Shown here: one piece after another, positions 16,821 through 23,131 of the stretch
Layout: each line of letters starts with the position of its first letter
How positions within the stretch are numbered: position 1 is the first letter of the stretch
Source: a virus
Lineage: Duplodnaviria > Caudoviricetes
Strand: one strand, 5' to 3'
DNA length: 31,843 bases
Virus record (IMG/VR): IMGVR_UViG_3300037424_000687
Location: 1-31,843 of that record
Made by a program: the position numbers and the translations under genes
The notes under the pieces: model-generated
What the model saw: the letters and a program-made list of their open reading frames with translations, nothing else
Databases searched by the model: none
What the model was told of the DNA's origin: nothing

Positions 16821-17079
16821 CTACGCGAACCTCGCCAGCAGAATCGGACGCGTAAATATAGATATCAATCGCAGCGCTATTTGTCATCGTTAGACTTTGC
16901 TCCAACCAACTAATAGCAGTAGACAAATCAGTAGGAGCCGCTGCACCTGTCAATCTGTATGTCTGAAAATATTTACTAGGAGTTAATGACCTTTTCCAGA
17001 TTACGGCCGTAGTAACATTGGTAGCAACCTTTACCCATGTATTCTTAGTACAAACTACAATAGCGGGATTAGAAGCCAT
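16813..17079 (-). CDS. Hypothetical virion-associated protein
   Basis: 88 aa, beta-rich, overlaps both portal stop and protease start. Confidence 0.6.
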   Translation of the reverse strand: MASNPAIVVCTKNTWVKVATNVTTAVIWKRSLTPSKYFQTYRLTGAAAPTDLSTAISWLEQSLTMTNSAAIDIYIYASDSAGEVRVDA

Positions 17080-18592
17080 TTGCTTTGCTCCATGGTACAG
17101 GTGTCAAATCAGGTATCTCTCGACGTAGCGCCGCTCGATTACTCAATGCATCTGATTGATTGTATTCACGAGCTACGCGCTTCAACGTAGTAGCTCCCAT
17201 TTCAATGAAAGCTTTATCGGCCGAGGCCTGTTTATTCGGATCTAGTTGCGGAATCGAAGCGCCAGCCCATCCACAACTAAGCCACGCCTTACGAAGCCTA
17301 GGATCGCTAAATCCTGGACACCTAATAGCTCCGCGAGCTATTTGATCTTCTAACCAGACACTATAAAACGGATTCAGATAGTCGCTTGATAGTTCTGAAA
17401 TCCAAAAAGCTACAATCCTCCAAAACATTTGAAGCTCACCGCGGCTTGCTGAATAGCTATCCTGGAAAAGCATTTTTACAATTGATAGTGGAACCCCTAA
17501 TGATGCGGACACATATTGAGCTATCGATTCGAAAAACGCTGGATACACGAGCGAAGGACTGGTTTTTCGAAACGGTTCCAACGACTCCCCGGCGCCGAGA
17601 TTCAACACGCCTATCGCGCCGGGTTGCCTCGATACCGACTCGGCCAGTTCTTGATATTCCGGCATCTCGGTATCTGTTTCAGTAGACGCCATATTCTGTT
17701 GGCCGTCACCATGCCAAAATGCCGGGGTATCGAATCCGCCCCCACTAGAAGGGGCGTCGTCAGACGGTTTCACGTAGAATGATAGCTGTGATTGCTGTAC
17801 GGCCGCGTGAAGCTCCGCCAATTCGTACTCGGTTAGGATGTTTGCCTCTTCTAATACATGGGCTAAACGAGATAAACCACGCGTTTGACCTGCAAAAACA
17901 GGCAAAAAACCGTGCAAAATGATAGGCTTTCCGTTAGAAGTCTTAGCCGGAATAATCTCAGTTTTACCGCTGTTATCTTCTTTTTTGAGATTATAACCGG
18001 TAGGAGCGCCGTATTCATCTACGATAACTCCATAATGGGGCTTATCTCGCTCTCTACCCGGCACTATCTGATCCGGATCTATCATACCAAATCGAACGCC
18101 ATCCGGTTCGTAGTAAACCCTAACGAAATATTCACCGTCTCTATGTTGCGAAGTCGAGCATAATCTCTGCAACTGATAGAAAGTTAGCGACTTCTCAACA
18201 TGGTTATCTTTATCAGAAGCGTAATAATCGAATTTAGTTTCTATATTTCTAGACCATTTCTCAAGCCTATCCGGAGATAGTCCCAAAATCTCAGCGTTGG
18301 GCGTAGCCTCTAATTGAAGACCATCCCCTACTACGCAATCGCTCAATCGCTCGACCACGGCACGTAGCAGCAACGAGTCAAAATAGGCTACACGAGCCGC
18401 CAGACGAACATCGCGAGTATTGAGCTTCAAGTCTCGCGCGGCGCGAATCGGCTTGTGTTTTGACGCGGCATTACGGGTTGCCGAATACCCCGATGACAGC
18501 ATCGCCCGAGGTCGAAGGCTGACCGTATCGGCAATCGCTTGGCTTTCCGGCGAGAGGGAAAACACACTACGTAATGAGCCCCATAAGCCCAT
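17069..18592 (-). CDS. Portal protein, lambda family
   Basis: VVGDGLQL, TFYQLQRL...DGEYF, GQTRGLS, SYSASRGEL, QLDPNKQ motifs. Confidence 0.92.
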   Translation of the reverse strand: MGLWGSLRSVFSLSPESQAIADTVSLRPRAMLSSGYSATRNAASKHKPIRAARDLKLNTRDVRLAARVAYFDSLLLRAVVERLSDCVVGDGLQLEATPNAEILGLSPDRLEKWSRNIETKFDYYASDKDNHVEKSLTFYQLQRLCSTSQHRDGEYFVRVYYEPDGVRFGMIDPDQIVPGRERDKPHYGVIVDEYGAPTGYNLKKEDNSGKTEIIPAKTSNGKPIILHGFLPVFAGQTRGLSRLAHVLEEANILTEYELAELHAAVQQSQLSFYVKPSDDAPSSGGGFDTPAFWHGDGQQNMASTETDTEMPEYQELAESVSRQPGAIGVLNLGAGESLEPFRKTSPSLVYPAFFESIAQYVSASLGVPLSIVKMLFQDSYSASRGELQMFWRIVAFWISELSSDYLNPFYSVWLEDQIARGAIRCPGFSDPRLRKAWLSCGWAGASIPQLDPNKQASADKAFIEMGATTLKRVAREYNQSDALSNRAALRREIPDLTPVPWSKANGF

Positions 18593-18862
18593 TTATCCCC
18601 GCCGATCTGCGATGAAACGAATATGTCCGCGTCCGTACAGAGTGCGGTAAAGCTGGTCTATTTCGCGTTCTAACCTCAAGATTGCTTTCTCTATTCCCTC
18701 TGAATTTCGATATGAAACCTTCTGAGATGCCTCACCAGAATTGAATTCAAACGATCCAATTTCTTGTGCTGACATCCTAGTTAGAGTTGTTTCCAGAATA
18801 GCGAGCCTGGCCGTTTTAGCCTCAAGCCGTGCAACTAGCCGATTGTATTGTAAAATTAACAT
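18593..18862 (-). CDS. Head completion protein (gpW-like)
   Basis: SFEFNSGEASQKVSYRN...ILRLEREI motif before the portal. Start uncertain: ATG 18862 preferred because the track start (18889) lies in the loop of the solitary repeat. Confidence 0.65.
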   Translation of the reverse strand: MLILQYNRLVARLEAKTARLAILETTLTRMSAQEIGSFEFNSGEASQKVSYRNSEGIEKAILRLEREIDQLYRTLYGRGHIRFIADRRG

Positions 18863-18877
18863 TATACTAGATACACA

Positions 18878-18913
18878 GTCGCGACTCATAAGCTGTCACG
18901 CTAGCATTATTAA
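18878..18913 (-). repeat. Solitary CRISPR-like repeat unit
   Basis: + strand GTCGCGACTCATAAGCTGTCACGCTAGCATTATTAA, 25/36 ungapped identity to the array repeat, stem retained by compensatory changes. Confidence 0.75.
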
Positions 18914-18939
18914 ACACCATTAATAACAACTAAAGCCAC

Positions 18940-18968
18940 ATTATGCAGATTAGAGCAAATGGTTTGAA
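18940..18968 (-). promoter_or_regulatory. Candidate sigma70-type promoter for the solitary repeat and head operon
   Basis: Minus strand TTCAAA-17 bp-CATAAT, 26 bp upstream of the repeat. Confidence 0.4.
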
Positions 18969-18983
18969 GAAACCAGCTTCATT

Positions 18984-19025
18984 ATTGTAGCGGATTGTAG
19001 CGGAAAATGTTTGCGATTGTAGCGG
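18984..19025. promoter_or_regulatory. Three direct repeats ATTGTAGCGG in the divergent intergenic region
   Basis: Exact copies at 18984, 18994 and 19016. Confidence 0.6.
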
Positions 19026-19044: not shown

Positions 19045-19335
19045 ATGGGAACCAGACGATGCAAGCGCTGTTTATTAGAACTACCAGAATCGGAATTCGA
19101 TACACATCACAAAGATAAAACACTTCGATCAACGTGTAGAAAATGTCGCACGCCGTCAACCGACAAGACCACAAAGACGTGTCACGTATGCCGTTCGGAA
19201 CTTTCCATGACTCGATTTGCGATCAACCGCACATCCAGCGACGGACATCAAGATATGTGTAAAATGTGCAGATCTAGATATTACCAATCTAAGAAAGATA
19301 AAAATAAAGATGTACAAATCGATATCACAGGCTGA
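19045..19335 (+). CDS. Double zinc-finger protein
   Basis: CKRC...CRKC and CHVC...CKMC; resembles Zn modules of phage HNH-associated proteins but no HNH core seen. Confidence 0.7.
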   Translation: MGTRRCKRCLLELPESEFDTHHKDKTLRSTCRKCRTPSTDKTTKTCHVCRSELSMTRFAINRTSSDGHQDMCKMCRSRYYQSKKDKNKDVQIDITG

Positions 19336-19873
19336 ATTCGCTAAGAAAATAGGCATAACCGCGTCATCGCTACGCAAATACATAGCAAATGACGATATTG
19401 GAGTAGACAGAGACGAGCGTCCATTCCGTATTTTTCTCGACCATCCGGCAACAATAAAGTTTCTGAATAAGCGCGAAGTCATGCCCGATGGCGATCAGGA
19501 AGCGATGGCCGAAGACATCAATAAGCGTTTATACGAAATTCAATTAGATGAGCTTCCCAACGTTCCCGATCTCGTTCTAAAACGTGTAAAGATTCTGAAT
19601 GATATTCGTAAAACAAAGCTTCAAACCGATGCTATGCGCAAGGTACTGGTTGCCCGTAAACACGTTGAGATGTTTTTTAATCAACTTATATCAATTGATA
19701 ACTCAATATTAAAAACACTTGGGCAATCGCTATCAGTAAACATCGCTTCGACTCTAGGAACAACTGATAGTGAAAAGATAATCGCAATACAGACACTCAT
19801 AGATGATGAAATATATAAAGCCCTAAAGCTCCGGCATGATAAAATCATTGCGTATCTGGAGCGTCTAAAATGA
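19310..19873 (+). CDS. terS: Terminase small subunit (Nu1-like HTH)
   Basis: ISQAEFAKKIGITASSLRKYI helix-turn-helix followed by coiled coil; overlaps terL start. Start moved to ATG 19310. Confidence 0.75.
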   Translation: MYKSISQAEFAKKIGITASSLRKYIANDDIGVDRDERPFRIFLDHPATIKFLNKREVMPDGDQEAMAEDINKRLYEIQLDELPNVPDLVLKRVKILNDIRKTKLQTDAMRKVLVARKHVEMFFNQLISIDNSILKTLGQSLSVNIASTLGTTDSEKIIAIQTLIDDEIYKALKLRHDKIIAYLERLK

Positions 19874-21786
19874 CACTTCGCGATCCGGATATAGAGTTTC
19901 TAAAACACATAGCTGAATCAGAGCGTTTAGATCCACCAATGAAATCGATTGTTGATTTCATTGAGGCTAGACGTATTATGCCTAGTGGTGCTCCAAAACC
20001 CGGACCGTTCAAGTTTTCTTGGACGCCATACCTTCGCGAGATGCAAGAGTGTCTATCTCCAACTAGTCCAATACAAGAGATAGCGGTTATGAAATCCGCA
20101 CAACTTGGCTTTACTGAGGTATTGCTAAATACAATAGGTTTCTACATTGCCGAGTGTTCTAGTAATATTCTATACGTTTCATCAACCGGTGATCTGTTAG
20201 AGCGTTTCTCGGCTGAAAAACTAGAGCCGATGATCGATTCCCTCGGCATACGTAAGCTATTCATAGCTCCAATCAATACCGACGATACGGAATCTATGAC
20301 CCGGCGCGGTGGTGATAAGGTACTGCTAAAACACTATCCAGGTGGAACACTCGCGCTTGCATCGCTGAATTCATTAGCTTCATTACGGTCTGCTAGCGTA
20401 CGCATCCTATTGCTAGATGAAATCGATGGCGTGAAGTTTACAAGTCCAGAGGGTTCGGCTACCAATGTGGCTAAGGCACGTACCGACGCATATGGACATT
20501 TACGAAAAATAGTATACGTATCAACGCCAACGGTAAACAATACAAGCTTGATCGCGAGATTATACGAGCGTGGTGACCAGCGTAAATATTTCATACCATG
20601 TGCGCATTGCGGAGAATTTATTGAACTACACATGCGCAATCTAAAACGAGTAGACGGACAAGCTGTTTACTTCTGTGATAAATGCGGAGCGGCAATCGAA
20701 GAATATCAAAAAAAGAGCATGGAATCAAACGGAGAATGGCGAGCTACTGTAATATCCAAACAGGGACCACTATATAGAAGCTACCACATGAATAGCCTAT
20801 ATTCGCCAACGTTATCATGGGACCAAATCTTACGAGAATACGATACGGCAAAAGAGGAAGGCGAAGAATCGATGAGAGCGTTCATCAATCTTCGTAGAGG
20901 TGAGCCATTCCGCGAAACAGGGGAACGACCTAGAATAGATAAAGTAATTTCTATGCGTGGCACTCGCCCCGAAAAAGAAGTTCCCGAGTTTATACTATAT
21001 AACACCATGTCCGTAGATGTTCAATCGGGCGGAAAGGATACGGACTCTAGACTATGTATAAACGTAGTAGGCCATGGTAGTAAAATGAGAAAAGCGATAT
21101 TGAAATACCATGAAATAGTAGGAGCTATCGACAATCCGTACGAAGGCGCATGGAAAGAATTCTACGATATGGCTTCGGGAGGTGAATACAATTATTCACG
21201 CCGATCGGACGGACTAACATTTCCCATTCAACTTGCGGCTATAGACTCGGGAGATGGAAATCTAACCGGCGTTGTATTTGATTTTTGTAAGCGACTCGGA
21301 CCGTCGGTATTTCCGCTGAAAGGCTTTGCTAAGTTAGGTAACACTAGAGTAAAAAAATACATGTGGGTAACTCAATCCAATGCAGCAACTAGTCAACGTA
21401 ATAAACTAAACACTAACGTTGACGCGAGTAAAGAACGTTATCTTCAAATCAATACCACATATTATAAAAATGCTATTTATAATCAGTTACAGGTTCGATA
21501 TGAGGATAACGCTGAATTTCAAAAGTACGGGTTCATAGAGTTCAATAAAGACCTGCATGACAACTATTTCAAGATGCTAGTTGCAGAAGAAAAAAACCGT
21601 GAAGGCGCGTTTATAAATCCTTCCGGCAAGCGAAATGAATCGCTGGATTGCCTAGTCTACAACTTCGCCCTTGCCGATTTCTGGCTCGAAACCAAAGCAG
21701 TCGAGAGAGCGCAATCTATAAAAGTCGTTCTAATGGAGCTCCACAAACATCGTCGCGTAGCTTGCGACTTACAGGATGTAGCATGA
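19870..21786 (+). CDS. terL: Terminase large subunit, lambda GpA family
   Basis: TPYLREM, MKSAQLGFTE, LLLDEID, VSTPT, GDQRKYFIPCAHC, SVDVQ, AIDSG, RNESLDCLVY. Confidence 0.95.
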   Translation: MTLRDPDIEFLKHIAESERLDPPMKSIVDFIEARRIMPSGAPKPGPFKFSWTPYLREMQECLSPTSPIQEIAVMKSAQLGFTEVLLNTIGFYIAECSSNILYVSSTGDLLERFSAEKLEPMIDSLGIRKLFIAPINTDDTESMTRRGGDKVLLKHYPGGTLALASLNSLASLRSASVRILLLDEIDGVKFTSPEGSATNVAKARTDAYGHLRKIVYVSTPTVNNTSLIARLYERGDQRKYFIPCAHCGEFIELHMRNLKRVDGQAVYFCDKCGAAIEEYQKKSMESNGEWRATVISKQGPLYRSYHMNSLYSPTLSWDQILREYDTAKEEGEESMRAFINLRRGEPFRETGERPRIDKVISMRGTRPEKEVPEFILYNTMSVDVQSGGKDTDSRLCINVVGHGSKMRKAILKYHEIVGAIDNPYEGAWKEFYDMASGGEYNYSRRSDGLTFPIQLAAIDSGDGNLTGVVFDFCKRLGPSVFPLKGFAKLGNTRVKKYMWVTQSNAATSQRNKLNTNVDASKERYLQINTTYYKNAIYNQLQVRYEDNAEFQKYGFIEFNKDLHDNYFKMLVAEEKNREGAFINPSGKRNESLDCLVYNFALADFWLETKAVERAQSIKVVLMELHKHRRVACDLQDVA

Positions 21787-22448
21787 TAAAAATAGATACC
21801 TCGGAATGGAAAAAATACGGTACGTTACTAAAGAGTTTAGAAAAAAAAGTACCATCGGGAATATCAAAAATGCTGAATGACATGGCGTTCGGTACGCGTA
21901 ACACCGCGATTGAAGGAATCGAAAACACCATGACGATACGAGCAAAACAGTTTGTCTATTCTCGAATACAAGTTACAAAGGCTACCGTGGCATCACAACA
22001 GTCGATAGTTGGATCGGTAGCAACCAAAAACTTTAGCGGATTTGGCGAACAGGAAGAAGGCGGAATCTCAAAAATACTAAAGAAACGGTTGATAAGAAAA
22101 GAAGCTCGTGGCGGAGATATGAAACGAAAAGTCATCAGATCCAATAGGCTGTCACCTTACAATCAACTAGAACTAGCCACGTCGCTTGGTATGATTCGTA
22201 GCTTTAGCCGCAAGGGATATCGTAAGCCGTTTATAATTAACTATCCCGGTGAGGATACGATAGAGCCGGGTTTATATAAACTAGTAGGACGTAGAGATAA
22301 ACAAAAACTCGTACAGCTTCAATCGTTCGTTCATCCCACAAAAGCCAAAGGCGACCCGTGGATGAAACCCGCACCTGCTAAGTTTTTCGCACGCTGGAAT
22401 ATAAACAAAGCGTGGTTTATAAATTGGGGAAGATACATAAAGAAATAA
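21783..22448 (+). CDS. Basic neck/tail completion protein (gpZ-like)
   Basis: Likely start MIKIDTSEW at 21783 (ATGA overlap with terL); KMLNDMAF and PWMKPA motifs. Confidence 0.55.
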   Translation: MIKIDTSEWKKYGTLLKSLEKKVPSGISKMLNDMAFGTRNTAIEGIENTMTIRAKQFVYSRIQVTKATVASQQSIVGSVATKNFSGFGEQEEGGISKILKKRLIRKEARGGDMKRKVIRSNRLSPYNQLELATSLGMIRSFSRKGYRKPFIINYPGEDTIEPGLYKLVGRRDKQKLVQLQSFVHPTKAKGDPWMKPAPAKFFARWNINKAWFINWGRYIKK

Positions 22449-22514: not shown

Positions 22515-22574
22515 TGACCATATGTGACGATACGTTGCACTACGTGACGATATATTGCACTACGTGACCATATG
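22515..22574. repeat. Six tandem 10-bp units (TGACCATATG / TGACGATACG / TTGCACTACG variants)
   Basis: Read directly; exact 10-bp period. Confidence 0.85.
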
Positions 22575-22619
22575 TATATGGTGAGTGTTCCATTTTAGTG
22601 TGCAATTTATATCACACCT

Positions 22620-22678
22620 TGCGAGAAACGGGGGTCGCGACCGTCCTCCCTTCCTTTCGTACAGTGATGAAAGGACCC
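22620..22678 (-). other. Candidate cos site (cosQ/cosN-like)
   Basis: Minus strand GGGTCCTTTC...GGGAGGACGGTCGCGACCCCCGTTTCTCGC resembles lambda GGGTCCTTTC...GGGCGGCGACCTCGCGGGTTTTCGC; the phage has a GpA-type terminase. Confidence 0.55.
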
Positions 22679-22702
22679 ACACACCATTCGTTCAGTACTA
22701 TT

Positions 22703-22732
22703 TGACCATATGTGACCATACGTTGCACTATG
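22703..22732. repeat. Second block of the same 10-bp units (3 copies)
   Basis: TGACCATATG TGACCATACG TTGCACTATG. Confidence 0.8.
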
Positions 22733-22843
22733 TAACGACGCGCGATAAAGCCACGGTCAAATCATACGATTGTTATATTTATTTCATCTATTATTTATAA
22801 TAGCTATTTGCCAGCGTGCCTACGGATGTGGGATCAACTTCCT

Positions 22844-23131
22844 GTCCCAACTCATAAGCCGTTTAGACATGCGGTCAAGTTGCAACTCATAAGCCGTTGT
22901 CCTGGCATTGTTGGCCGACATTGACGCGATATTCGCGGAGTCGAGAATAGATGTGACAACTCATAAGCCGTTGTCCTGGCATTGTTAGATACGAAAGCTC
23001 TTCATAGCCCCGATCAATACCGAAGTGACAACTCATAAGCCGTTGTCCTGGCATTGTTAGAATAAGACTATCAATAGTGGGATCACGCACGGGATGTGAC
23101 AACTCATAAGCCGTTGTCCTGGCATTGTTAG
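22844..23131 (-). CRISPR. cas-less CRISPR mini-array: 3 identical, 1 degenerate and 1 partial 36-bp repeats; 3 full spacers
   Basis: + strand repeat GTGACAACTCATAAGCCGTTGTCCTGGCATTGTTAG at 22953, 23025, 23096; 3-mismatch copy at 22879; 20-bp partial at 22844. Unique spacers 22915-22952 (38 bp), 22989-23024 (36 bp), 23061-23095 (35 bp). Strand inferred from the degenerate end and hairpin position. Confidence 0.93.

Follow-up and report, generated by a model that had tools for sequence, protein, structure and literature searches.

A solitary Cas12m-type repeat at the start of a phage virion operon and its possible role as a brake in cis

Immediately before the first gene of its virion operon, a phage genome fragment has a single, structurally complete Cas12m-type CRISPR repeat. 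The repeat lies on a 56-nt segment that is missing from one related sample and unchanged in another strain, and its family belongs to a clade of ~500-aa Cas12m-like proteins. The best explanation that we can offer, and a tentative one, is that it is a binding and processing site that would act in cis to damp expression of the virion genes. Racr cases aside, what solitary repeats do in viral genomes is the question that this locus addresses.

The phage fragment and its mini-array

The window, by which we mean the whole 31.8-kb stretch of DNA that was analysed, is the complete record G000, a fragment (47% complete) of the genome of a contractile-tailed phage. Head and tail genes occupy the minus strand, starting with a gpW-like gene and then a lambda-type portal gene. 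Divergent from these, the plus strand encodes an HNH-like protein, a probable small terminase (assigned from its position and a weak HTH match), the large terminase subunit, and a minor tail protein. The main features are as follows.

17069-18592, minus strand: lambda-family portal gene, with protease, capsid, sheath, tape measure, and baseplate genes after it
18593-18862, minus strand: gpW-like gene for head-tail joining (89 aa), which opens the head-tail operon and lacks a Shine-Dalgarno sequence
19870-21786, plus strand: terminase large subunit gene (terL), divergent from the virion operon and located between the lone repeat and the array
22843-23131, minus strand: Cas-less mini-array with three identical repeats (22953-22988, 23025-23060, and 23096-23131), one degenerate repeat (22879-22914), and one partial repeat at the trailer end
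22989-23024, minus strand: spacer matching the phage's own terL (20248-20283) at 31 of 36 positions

All five mismatches between the spacer and terL are at third codon positions, so the array is probably aimed at relatives of this phage; terL of strain X2, described below, has the spacer's base at one of the five sites. Among 147 spacers compared with all loci, this match was the sole convincing protospacer, and a PAM is therefore not derivable. A cas gene was sought in the 31.8 kb of G000, 47% of a genome, and none was found. The exact core of the array repeat had 0 matches in IMG/VR.

The terminase module (19045-22448) has the same divergent layout relative to the head-tail operon in L063 and is in line with it in more distant relatives. 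Both X2 and X3 have a 9-nt insertion at 19865, just before the terL start. Between the module and the array, positions 22515-22738 hold three copies of a 36-nt non-CRISPR repeat next to an AT-rich stretch; packaging or an origin is a possible function of this site. At the ends of the contig (1-305 and 31618-31833) are 129-nt coding repeats in a tail-fibre gene and 18-nt hexapeptide repeats, the probable cause of the assembly stop.

Structure and origin of the lone repeat

18878-18913, minus strand: solitary Cas12m-type repeat with a helix (14-19/29-34), a pseudoknot helix (9-11/20-22), and conserved A12, G13, A35, and C36, the scaffold being that described in PMC10442227

The nearest other repeat copy is ~3.9 kb away. 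The lone repeat thus has the position by which solitary repeat units (SRUs) are defined (single, intergenic, and away from other repeats and cas genes), and it also falls within an in-frame upstream extension of the gpW-like open reading frame.

An earlier note on this DNA had described a solitary repeat equal in length to the array repeat and identical to it at 25 of 36 positions, and direct comparison confirms both. Only 2 of 2000 shuffled repeats reached 25 matches (array-masked window, both strands, with the query one base out of register). The note's observation that 7 of the 11 differences fall in the stem while all six pairs are kept also holds on recount: three pairs are swapped on both sides, one becomes U-G, and two are unchanged. 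As claimed, the U-G pair works only on the minus strand, where the hairpin is the minimum free energy structure (-7.3 kcal/mol); on the plus strand it is broken (-3.9 kcal/mol). By itself the fold energy is not unusual (z -0.82). We also identified the pseudoknot helix, which the earlier note did not describe and in which the lone copy keeps pairing by a double change (pair 11-20, C-G to U-A).

The Cas12m2 scaffold, as described in PMC10442227, consists of a 6-bp helix and a second stacked helix with a flipped A, a G:A pair, and a terminal C that is read as a base. Mapped from that description with a one-base shift for the 9-nt loop, A12, G13, A35, and C36 are all present in the lone copy, so that the recognition features of Cas12m2 (flipped A, G:A pair, and terminal C) are kept. 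An Rfam search of the window returned 0 hits, and the R1 model score of the lone copy (38.3 bits) is no evidence, as this copy was a training row.

The lone copy is nearer to another phage's array repeat than to its own. It is identical to the array repeat of phage G001 at 28 of 31 core positions, and that repeat, at locus L028, matches it at 29 of 36 over the full length. The stem swaps are therefore mostly the difference between two natural repeat variants, rather than covariation in place. All three core changes relative to the G001 repeat are in paired columns and keep pairing, as would 156 of 816 transition triples there. The C-terminus of protein P0021 implies a natural cas-linked repeat with the same loop variant and loop start as the lone copy, so these three changes may have been inherited too. 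The lone copy is likely derived from an array with a different stem.

Repeat family and effector clade

A degenerate repeat pattern identified arrays in three IMG/VR records, a fourth record having a single match with 3 of 6 stem pairs. The records contain two distinct arrays, each directly after a ~500-aa gene on the same strand. Against PADLOC, the two proteins matched Cas12u1 (E values of 2e-37 and 8e-41), tied with a Cas12f model. Their 77 matches include 59 close clusters, and a 59-member profile compared with the PDB had Cas12m in all of its best four rows (top E value 1.9e-41); the top Atlas rows name TnpB/Cas12f-like families, not Cas12m. From the profile matches and the Atlas, we predict a Cas12m-like fold for the clade. 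The RuvC-I and RuvC-III aspartates are present in 59/59 members, and lysine stands at the aligned RuvC-II glutamate in 58/59, from which the clade is probably nuclease-dead.

In L144, a Cas12m-like gene is followed by a repeat identical to the window's array repeat at 35 of 36 positions, and this pairing fixes the subtype and orientation of the window's repeats. The repeat family belongs to the ~500-aa Cas12m-like (V-M/V-U1) clade. A plus-strand, type I-like reading of the repeats was rejected because, read along the minus strand, the arrays come after the cas genes.

We aligned 23 repeats by structure, with rows chosen by hand; about half came from structure-blind array detection and the rest from a structure scan, so the pairing figures lean high. 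With that bias, the stem (14-19/29-34) pairs in 100% of cells and the pseudoknot (9-11/20-22) in 97%, double changes occur in 9/9 pairs, and slid controls pair in only 25-37%. A scan of GTDB for the repeat pattern gave 13 matches, all single and none with a full stem; it revealed no cellular array and identified no host. The sets of annotated phages and plasmids each contain one weak relative of the effector.

The leader and the first virion gene

18940-18968, minus strand: candidate sigma-70-type promoter, TTCAAA-17-CATAAT (9/12), read from 18968 to 18940
18984-19025, minus strand: three CCGCTACAAT boxes upstream of the candidate promoter; relatives carry other tandem boxes there
18858-18877, minus strand: the 20 nt in spacer position after the lone repeat, with the gpW-like AUG at positions 16-18 and a negative target search

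The start of the gpW-like gene at 18862, which the earlier note had placed downstream of the repeat as likely, is supported by homologues in the two closest portal relatives that begin in the same register. It is the second ATG, and 15 nt separate it from the lone repeat. Several genes farther downstream do have Shine-Dalgarno sequences. The gpW (PF02831) label reflects position before a lambda-type portal and one Atlas row (row 17, score 0.92, PF02831 in 13% of members); the protein had no match in PHROGs or Pfam.

The two promoter elements proposed earlier fared less well. The candidate promoter upstream of the repeat is not above chance (1 site versus 2.1 expected in shuffles). The downstream TATAAT box, which overlaps the start codon, was rejected as a promoter: neither of the two closest portal relatives keeps it, the indel described below runs through it, and its RNA would begin inside gpW. 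The 12 nt that follow the repeat could form a hairpin with gpW codons 8-12, though not a significant one (z -1.61, 15/200 shuffles). This region has two synonymous changes in X4 and none in X2, too few to use.

Presence and absence of the repeat among strains

Contigs from other sequencing runs (X2, X3, and X4) were aligned to the locus; these are single contigs at depth 2-3, and X3 and X4 represent one sample.

18864-18919, minus strand: 56-nt indel made up of the repeat with 6 nt of upstream and 14 nt of downstream flank; X3 and X4 have one base in its place, and X2 has it unchanged

The X2 contig, on which the identity rests (one contig of 241 nt, depth 2.4), covers 18702-18942 and has 12 differences in 18702-18853 and 0 in 18854-18942. 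Ten of the 12 coding differences are synonymous, over 39 sites, or ~0.25 per synonymous site. Strains can thus do without the segment, yet two diverged ones have it unaltered, through either selection or recent transfer. The run with the filled allele (X2) also contains, at depth 380, a 31-nt piece that shows 3 differences over 18878-18908 and fits the G001 variant in count and extent.

The single-protein scan of IMG/VR for portal relatives yielded 0/4 confirmed, and the alignment scan gave 80 loci. The segment is identical in X2; it is missing from X3 and X4, and the repeat occurs in 0/49 portal-related records (49 of the 80 loci, mostly fragments). A structure scan over the 80 loci found four chance-like matches, none at the gpW start.

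Two proposals of the earlier note, that the element is selected as RNA and that it is a Cas binding or processing site tied to late genes, draw support by inference from the U-G pair that forms on one strand only, from the pseudoknot and recognition bases, which are intact, from an orientation in common with cas-linked arrays, and from the absence of change between two diverged strains. What falls away from the first is the use of the stem swaps as covariation in place.

Lone repeats in other Cas12m-like phages

Of 25 Cas12m-like viral records searched with a model, 16 gave matches, and in at least 5 of the 16 (G001, G004, G007, G015, and G025, among the matches listed) copies occur away from the cas-linked array. 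The complete genome G004 has two lone copies, fully paired, with stems unlike those of its own array. In G007, a variant repeat with a swapped pseudoknot lies right after a promoter-like site, 28 nt before the cas start, and L150 has a similar variant 59 nt before its cas start. An ATG opening at least 60 codons occurs within 60 nt after 9 of 21 lone copies, versus 18.5% at random positions, a weak figure because the copies cluster in one phage, the null covers both strands, and one of the nine is an internal methionine. The distance to the start codon varies widely, and several copies lie inside coding frames.

Among the latter is a full repeat in frame in the zinc-finger region of the L144 cas gene (L144:1418-1453, in the contig as assembled), and another occurs inside a broken cas gene (L155:1084). 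Apart from its cas-linked array, G001 (L028 and L024) has ~10 distinct copies, which all share the strand of the genes around them; one is in the first codons of the head protease gene, where a loop variant removes an in-frame stop. At L024:10111, L157:5394, L160:2753, and L150:639, the repeat is followed by a diverged copy of the sequence just before it (p 0.001-0.011), in two cases directly abutting, which hints at insertion with long duplication or at self-aimed guides. The lone repeats at L162:3471 and L160:2753, in different phages, have 23 of their last 24 bases in common although these phages have different arrays; at L162, the copy lies behind a promoter-like site and runs antisense to the local genes.

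Possible roles of the lone repeat

In the reading that we prefer, the repeat would be transcribed in the leader of the head-tail mRNA from the candidate promoter upstream. The Cas12m-like protein that serves the mini-array, whose gene could lie in the missing half of the genome, in the host, or on another element, would bind the leader repeat and cover the initiation region. Cas12m proteins process their own pre-crRNA within the repeat (PMC11013384). In purified form, PmCas12m cuts the repeat after nt 2-3 and the guide at positions 17-18 (10.64898/2026.03.26.714355), the guide-side cut being known from this one Cas12m of another clade. A similar cut here, near guide 17-18, would fall inside the gpW-like AUG (guide 16-18) and remove the start codon of the first virion gene; the outcome would be damped virion-gene expression in cis. 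With its divergence from the phage's own array repeats, the lone copy would also keep the terminase genes from being flanked by a perfect direct repeat. If this model holds, a CRISPR effector would regulate phage development via mRNA, without a DNA target.

Favoring this reading are the coincidence of the AUG with the PmCas12m cut, the tie between the repeat family and Cas12m-like genes, the intact scaffold, the identity in X2, and the precedent within the family of the G007 and L150 repeats before cas starts. It is weakened by the lack of a cas gene in the 47%-complete fragment, by the dispensability of the element, by the possibility that the identity in X2 is due to recent transfer rather than selection, by a promoter not above chance, by variable start-codon distances, and by copies inside genes, as random insertion gives. 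A broader version, which we regard as doubtful, is that phages of this nuclease-dead Cas12m-like clade seed variant repeats genome-wide and keep those in mRNA leaders. The effector would then repress phage genes by site-specific RNA processing; its targets would include its own gene and, in this phage, the virion operon, where the guide-side cut falls on the first start codon, and the result would be a cis-acting, RNA-level regulon spread by a mobile repeat.

The strongest competitor, though itself unlikely, is that the element is a tolerated insertion scar: a repeat of the family landed in the leader and spread recently between strains, with no useful role. The clean indel polymorphism fits this, as do the repeats in the cas genes of L144 and L155, the many dispersed copies in G001, and the natural repeat with the same loop variant implied by P0021. 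Resemblance of the downstream sequence to the upstream 100 nt, found in 4/20 lone copies versus 0/13 first repeats of arrays, is consistent with duplication on insertion; for the window's own copy, however, the test is not significant (p 0.19 and 0.47). Also against a scar are the 0 changes in 56 nt in X2, where ~14 would be expected at the synonymous rate or ~4 at the overall coding rate, and the fact that each change relative to the nearest array repeat preserves the structure.

An RNA decoy of the Racr type, in which an abundant late transcript offers a scaffold with a target-less guide and so soaks up the Cas12m-like effector of a rival phage or the host, appears a little less plausible again. 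The scaffold is intact, the target search is negative, the lone copy is nearer to another phage's array repeat than to its own, and the high-depth 31-nt piece in the X2 run fits the G001 variant. V-A is among the subtypes tested with Racr candidates, according to the Fig. 3g legend of PMC10651486. On the other hand, the phage keeps an array of the same family aimed at its relatives, which a decoy would weaken. There is no acr neighbour among the annotated genes, the 13 of 13 GTDB pattern matches are single and without a full stem, and late timing would seem ill-suited to a decoy.

We consider it improbable that the repeat yields a trans-acting guide like crlRNA or CreR, a processed crRNA whose 17-nt guide directs a DNA-binding effector to a promoter in the host, the missing genome half, or a rival phage. 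Fourteen of the 17 guide bases lie within the indel alongside the repeat and are unchanged in X2, and V-A CreR is a precedent (10.1101/2023.03.03.530964 and 10.1101/2023.03.10.532045). The lone repeats of relatives have partial matches upstream with PAM-like flanks (14/17 after TTT in L150 and 13 nt after TTC in G004). For the window's guide, no site in the window matches at more than 12/17, and 13 is the score that shuffles of the guide reach most often; the longest seed run is 9, equalled by 78/100 shuffles. Exact search of IMG/VR gave six matches to the 17 nt, about the number expected by chance, none longer than 17 nt and five of the six without a protein link to the window. A likeness between the guide and the phage's own -10 region leaves guide positions 1-5 unmatched. 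The promoter target that the earlier note envisaged for a CreA/CreR-like guide was thus found neither in the 31.8-kb window nor, beyond chance, in IMG/VR. The first three of these readings are not exclusive, since effector binding would give elements of all of them at once.

Very improbable is a DNA-level element (a promoter part, operator, or recombination site) that merely resembles a repeat: the divergent promoter region would suit one, and SRUs have been proposed as recombination targets at V-A loci, but the strand-specific U-G pair and the pseudoknot are RNA features and an allele without the repeat exists.

Relation to known systems

The lone repeat would appear to act like a Cas12m crRNA scaffold. 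It shares with the type V-M (V-U1) scaffolds of MmCas12m2, GoCas12m, MsCas12m, and PmCas12m the 36-nt length, 6-bp helix, pseudoknotted second helix, flipped A, G:A pair, and terminal C. Its family is likewise linked to a ~500-aa effector clade with a non-canonical RuvC, to which self-processing would apply. Unlike those systems, the window's scaffold is solitary, 4 kb from the array, in the leader of phage structural genes, and has a 9-nt loop; the clade itself differs in its D-K-D RuvC, in a first repeat often over the cas stop codon, and in loci mostly on viral or unassigned contigs.

By position the repeat also resembles the SRUs and Racrs of PMC10651486, which are single repeat-like units in viral intergenic regions, downstream of what is predicted to be a promoter and away from cas genes. 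Racrs are described there as small RNAs against host systems, often near acr genes, whereas the window's copy is likely in an operon leader, over a translation start region, in a phage with a mini-array of the same family. The terms V-U1, V-U, and V-M and the loop motif were sought in the available supplements of that paper and none was found. Like crlRNA/CreR and the V-A standalone repeats (10.1101/2023.03.03.530964 and 10.1101/2023.03.10.532045), this is a degenerate repeat that keeps its fold, and relatives have lone repeats upstream of cas, as V-A SRUs are. Unlike them, it has no second degenerate repeat and its downstream gene is a virion gene, not cas; no partial, PAM-flanked promoter match was found within the 31.8 kb or by exact search of IMG/VR, so that on these data it would not qualify as a CreR.

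Viral mini-arrays and the phage-borne MvCas12m (10.64898/2026.09.14.751636) offer a further parallel, in arrays that are Cas-less or adaptation-less, in a spacer against the terminase of a related phage, and in Cas12m carried by a phage. MvCas12m has 610 aa and an intact DED triad, unlike the clade here, and "solitary" and "mini-array" are absent from that text. We found no report of Cas12m-type lone repeats in phage leaders in the literature searched, which lay mostly outside subscription journals. The locus is an unusually clean test case: the repeat is present in some natural alleles and missing from others, there is a candidate effector (P0019/L144), and the cut is predicted to fall on the start codon.

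The analysis also exposes a little-described, mostly viral clade of ~500-aa Cas12m-like proteins (59 close clusters) whose repeats recur in dispersed positions with their structure preserved. Representative loci are L003:8527-10023, L019:2958-4490, and L144:122-1660 (proteins P0001-P0059, D-K-D RuvC, viral and unassigned contigs). Often the end of the cas gene lies within the first repeat, which supplies the stop codon; 9 of the 59 proteins end in RDGL. The arrays at L037:1736-2987 (also L038 and L039), L041, and L042 are irregular, with stems that vary in sequence and still pair and with short spacers (a 47-48-nt period in places). At L034:4946-5057, 5 kb upstream of the cas gene, two inverted repeats face each other around one 40-nt spacer.
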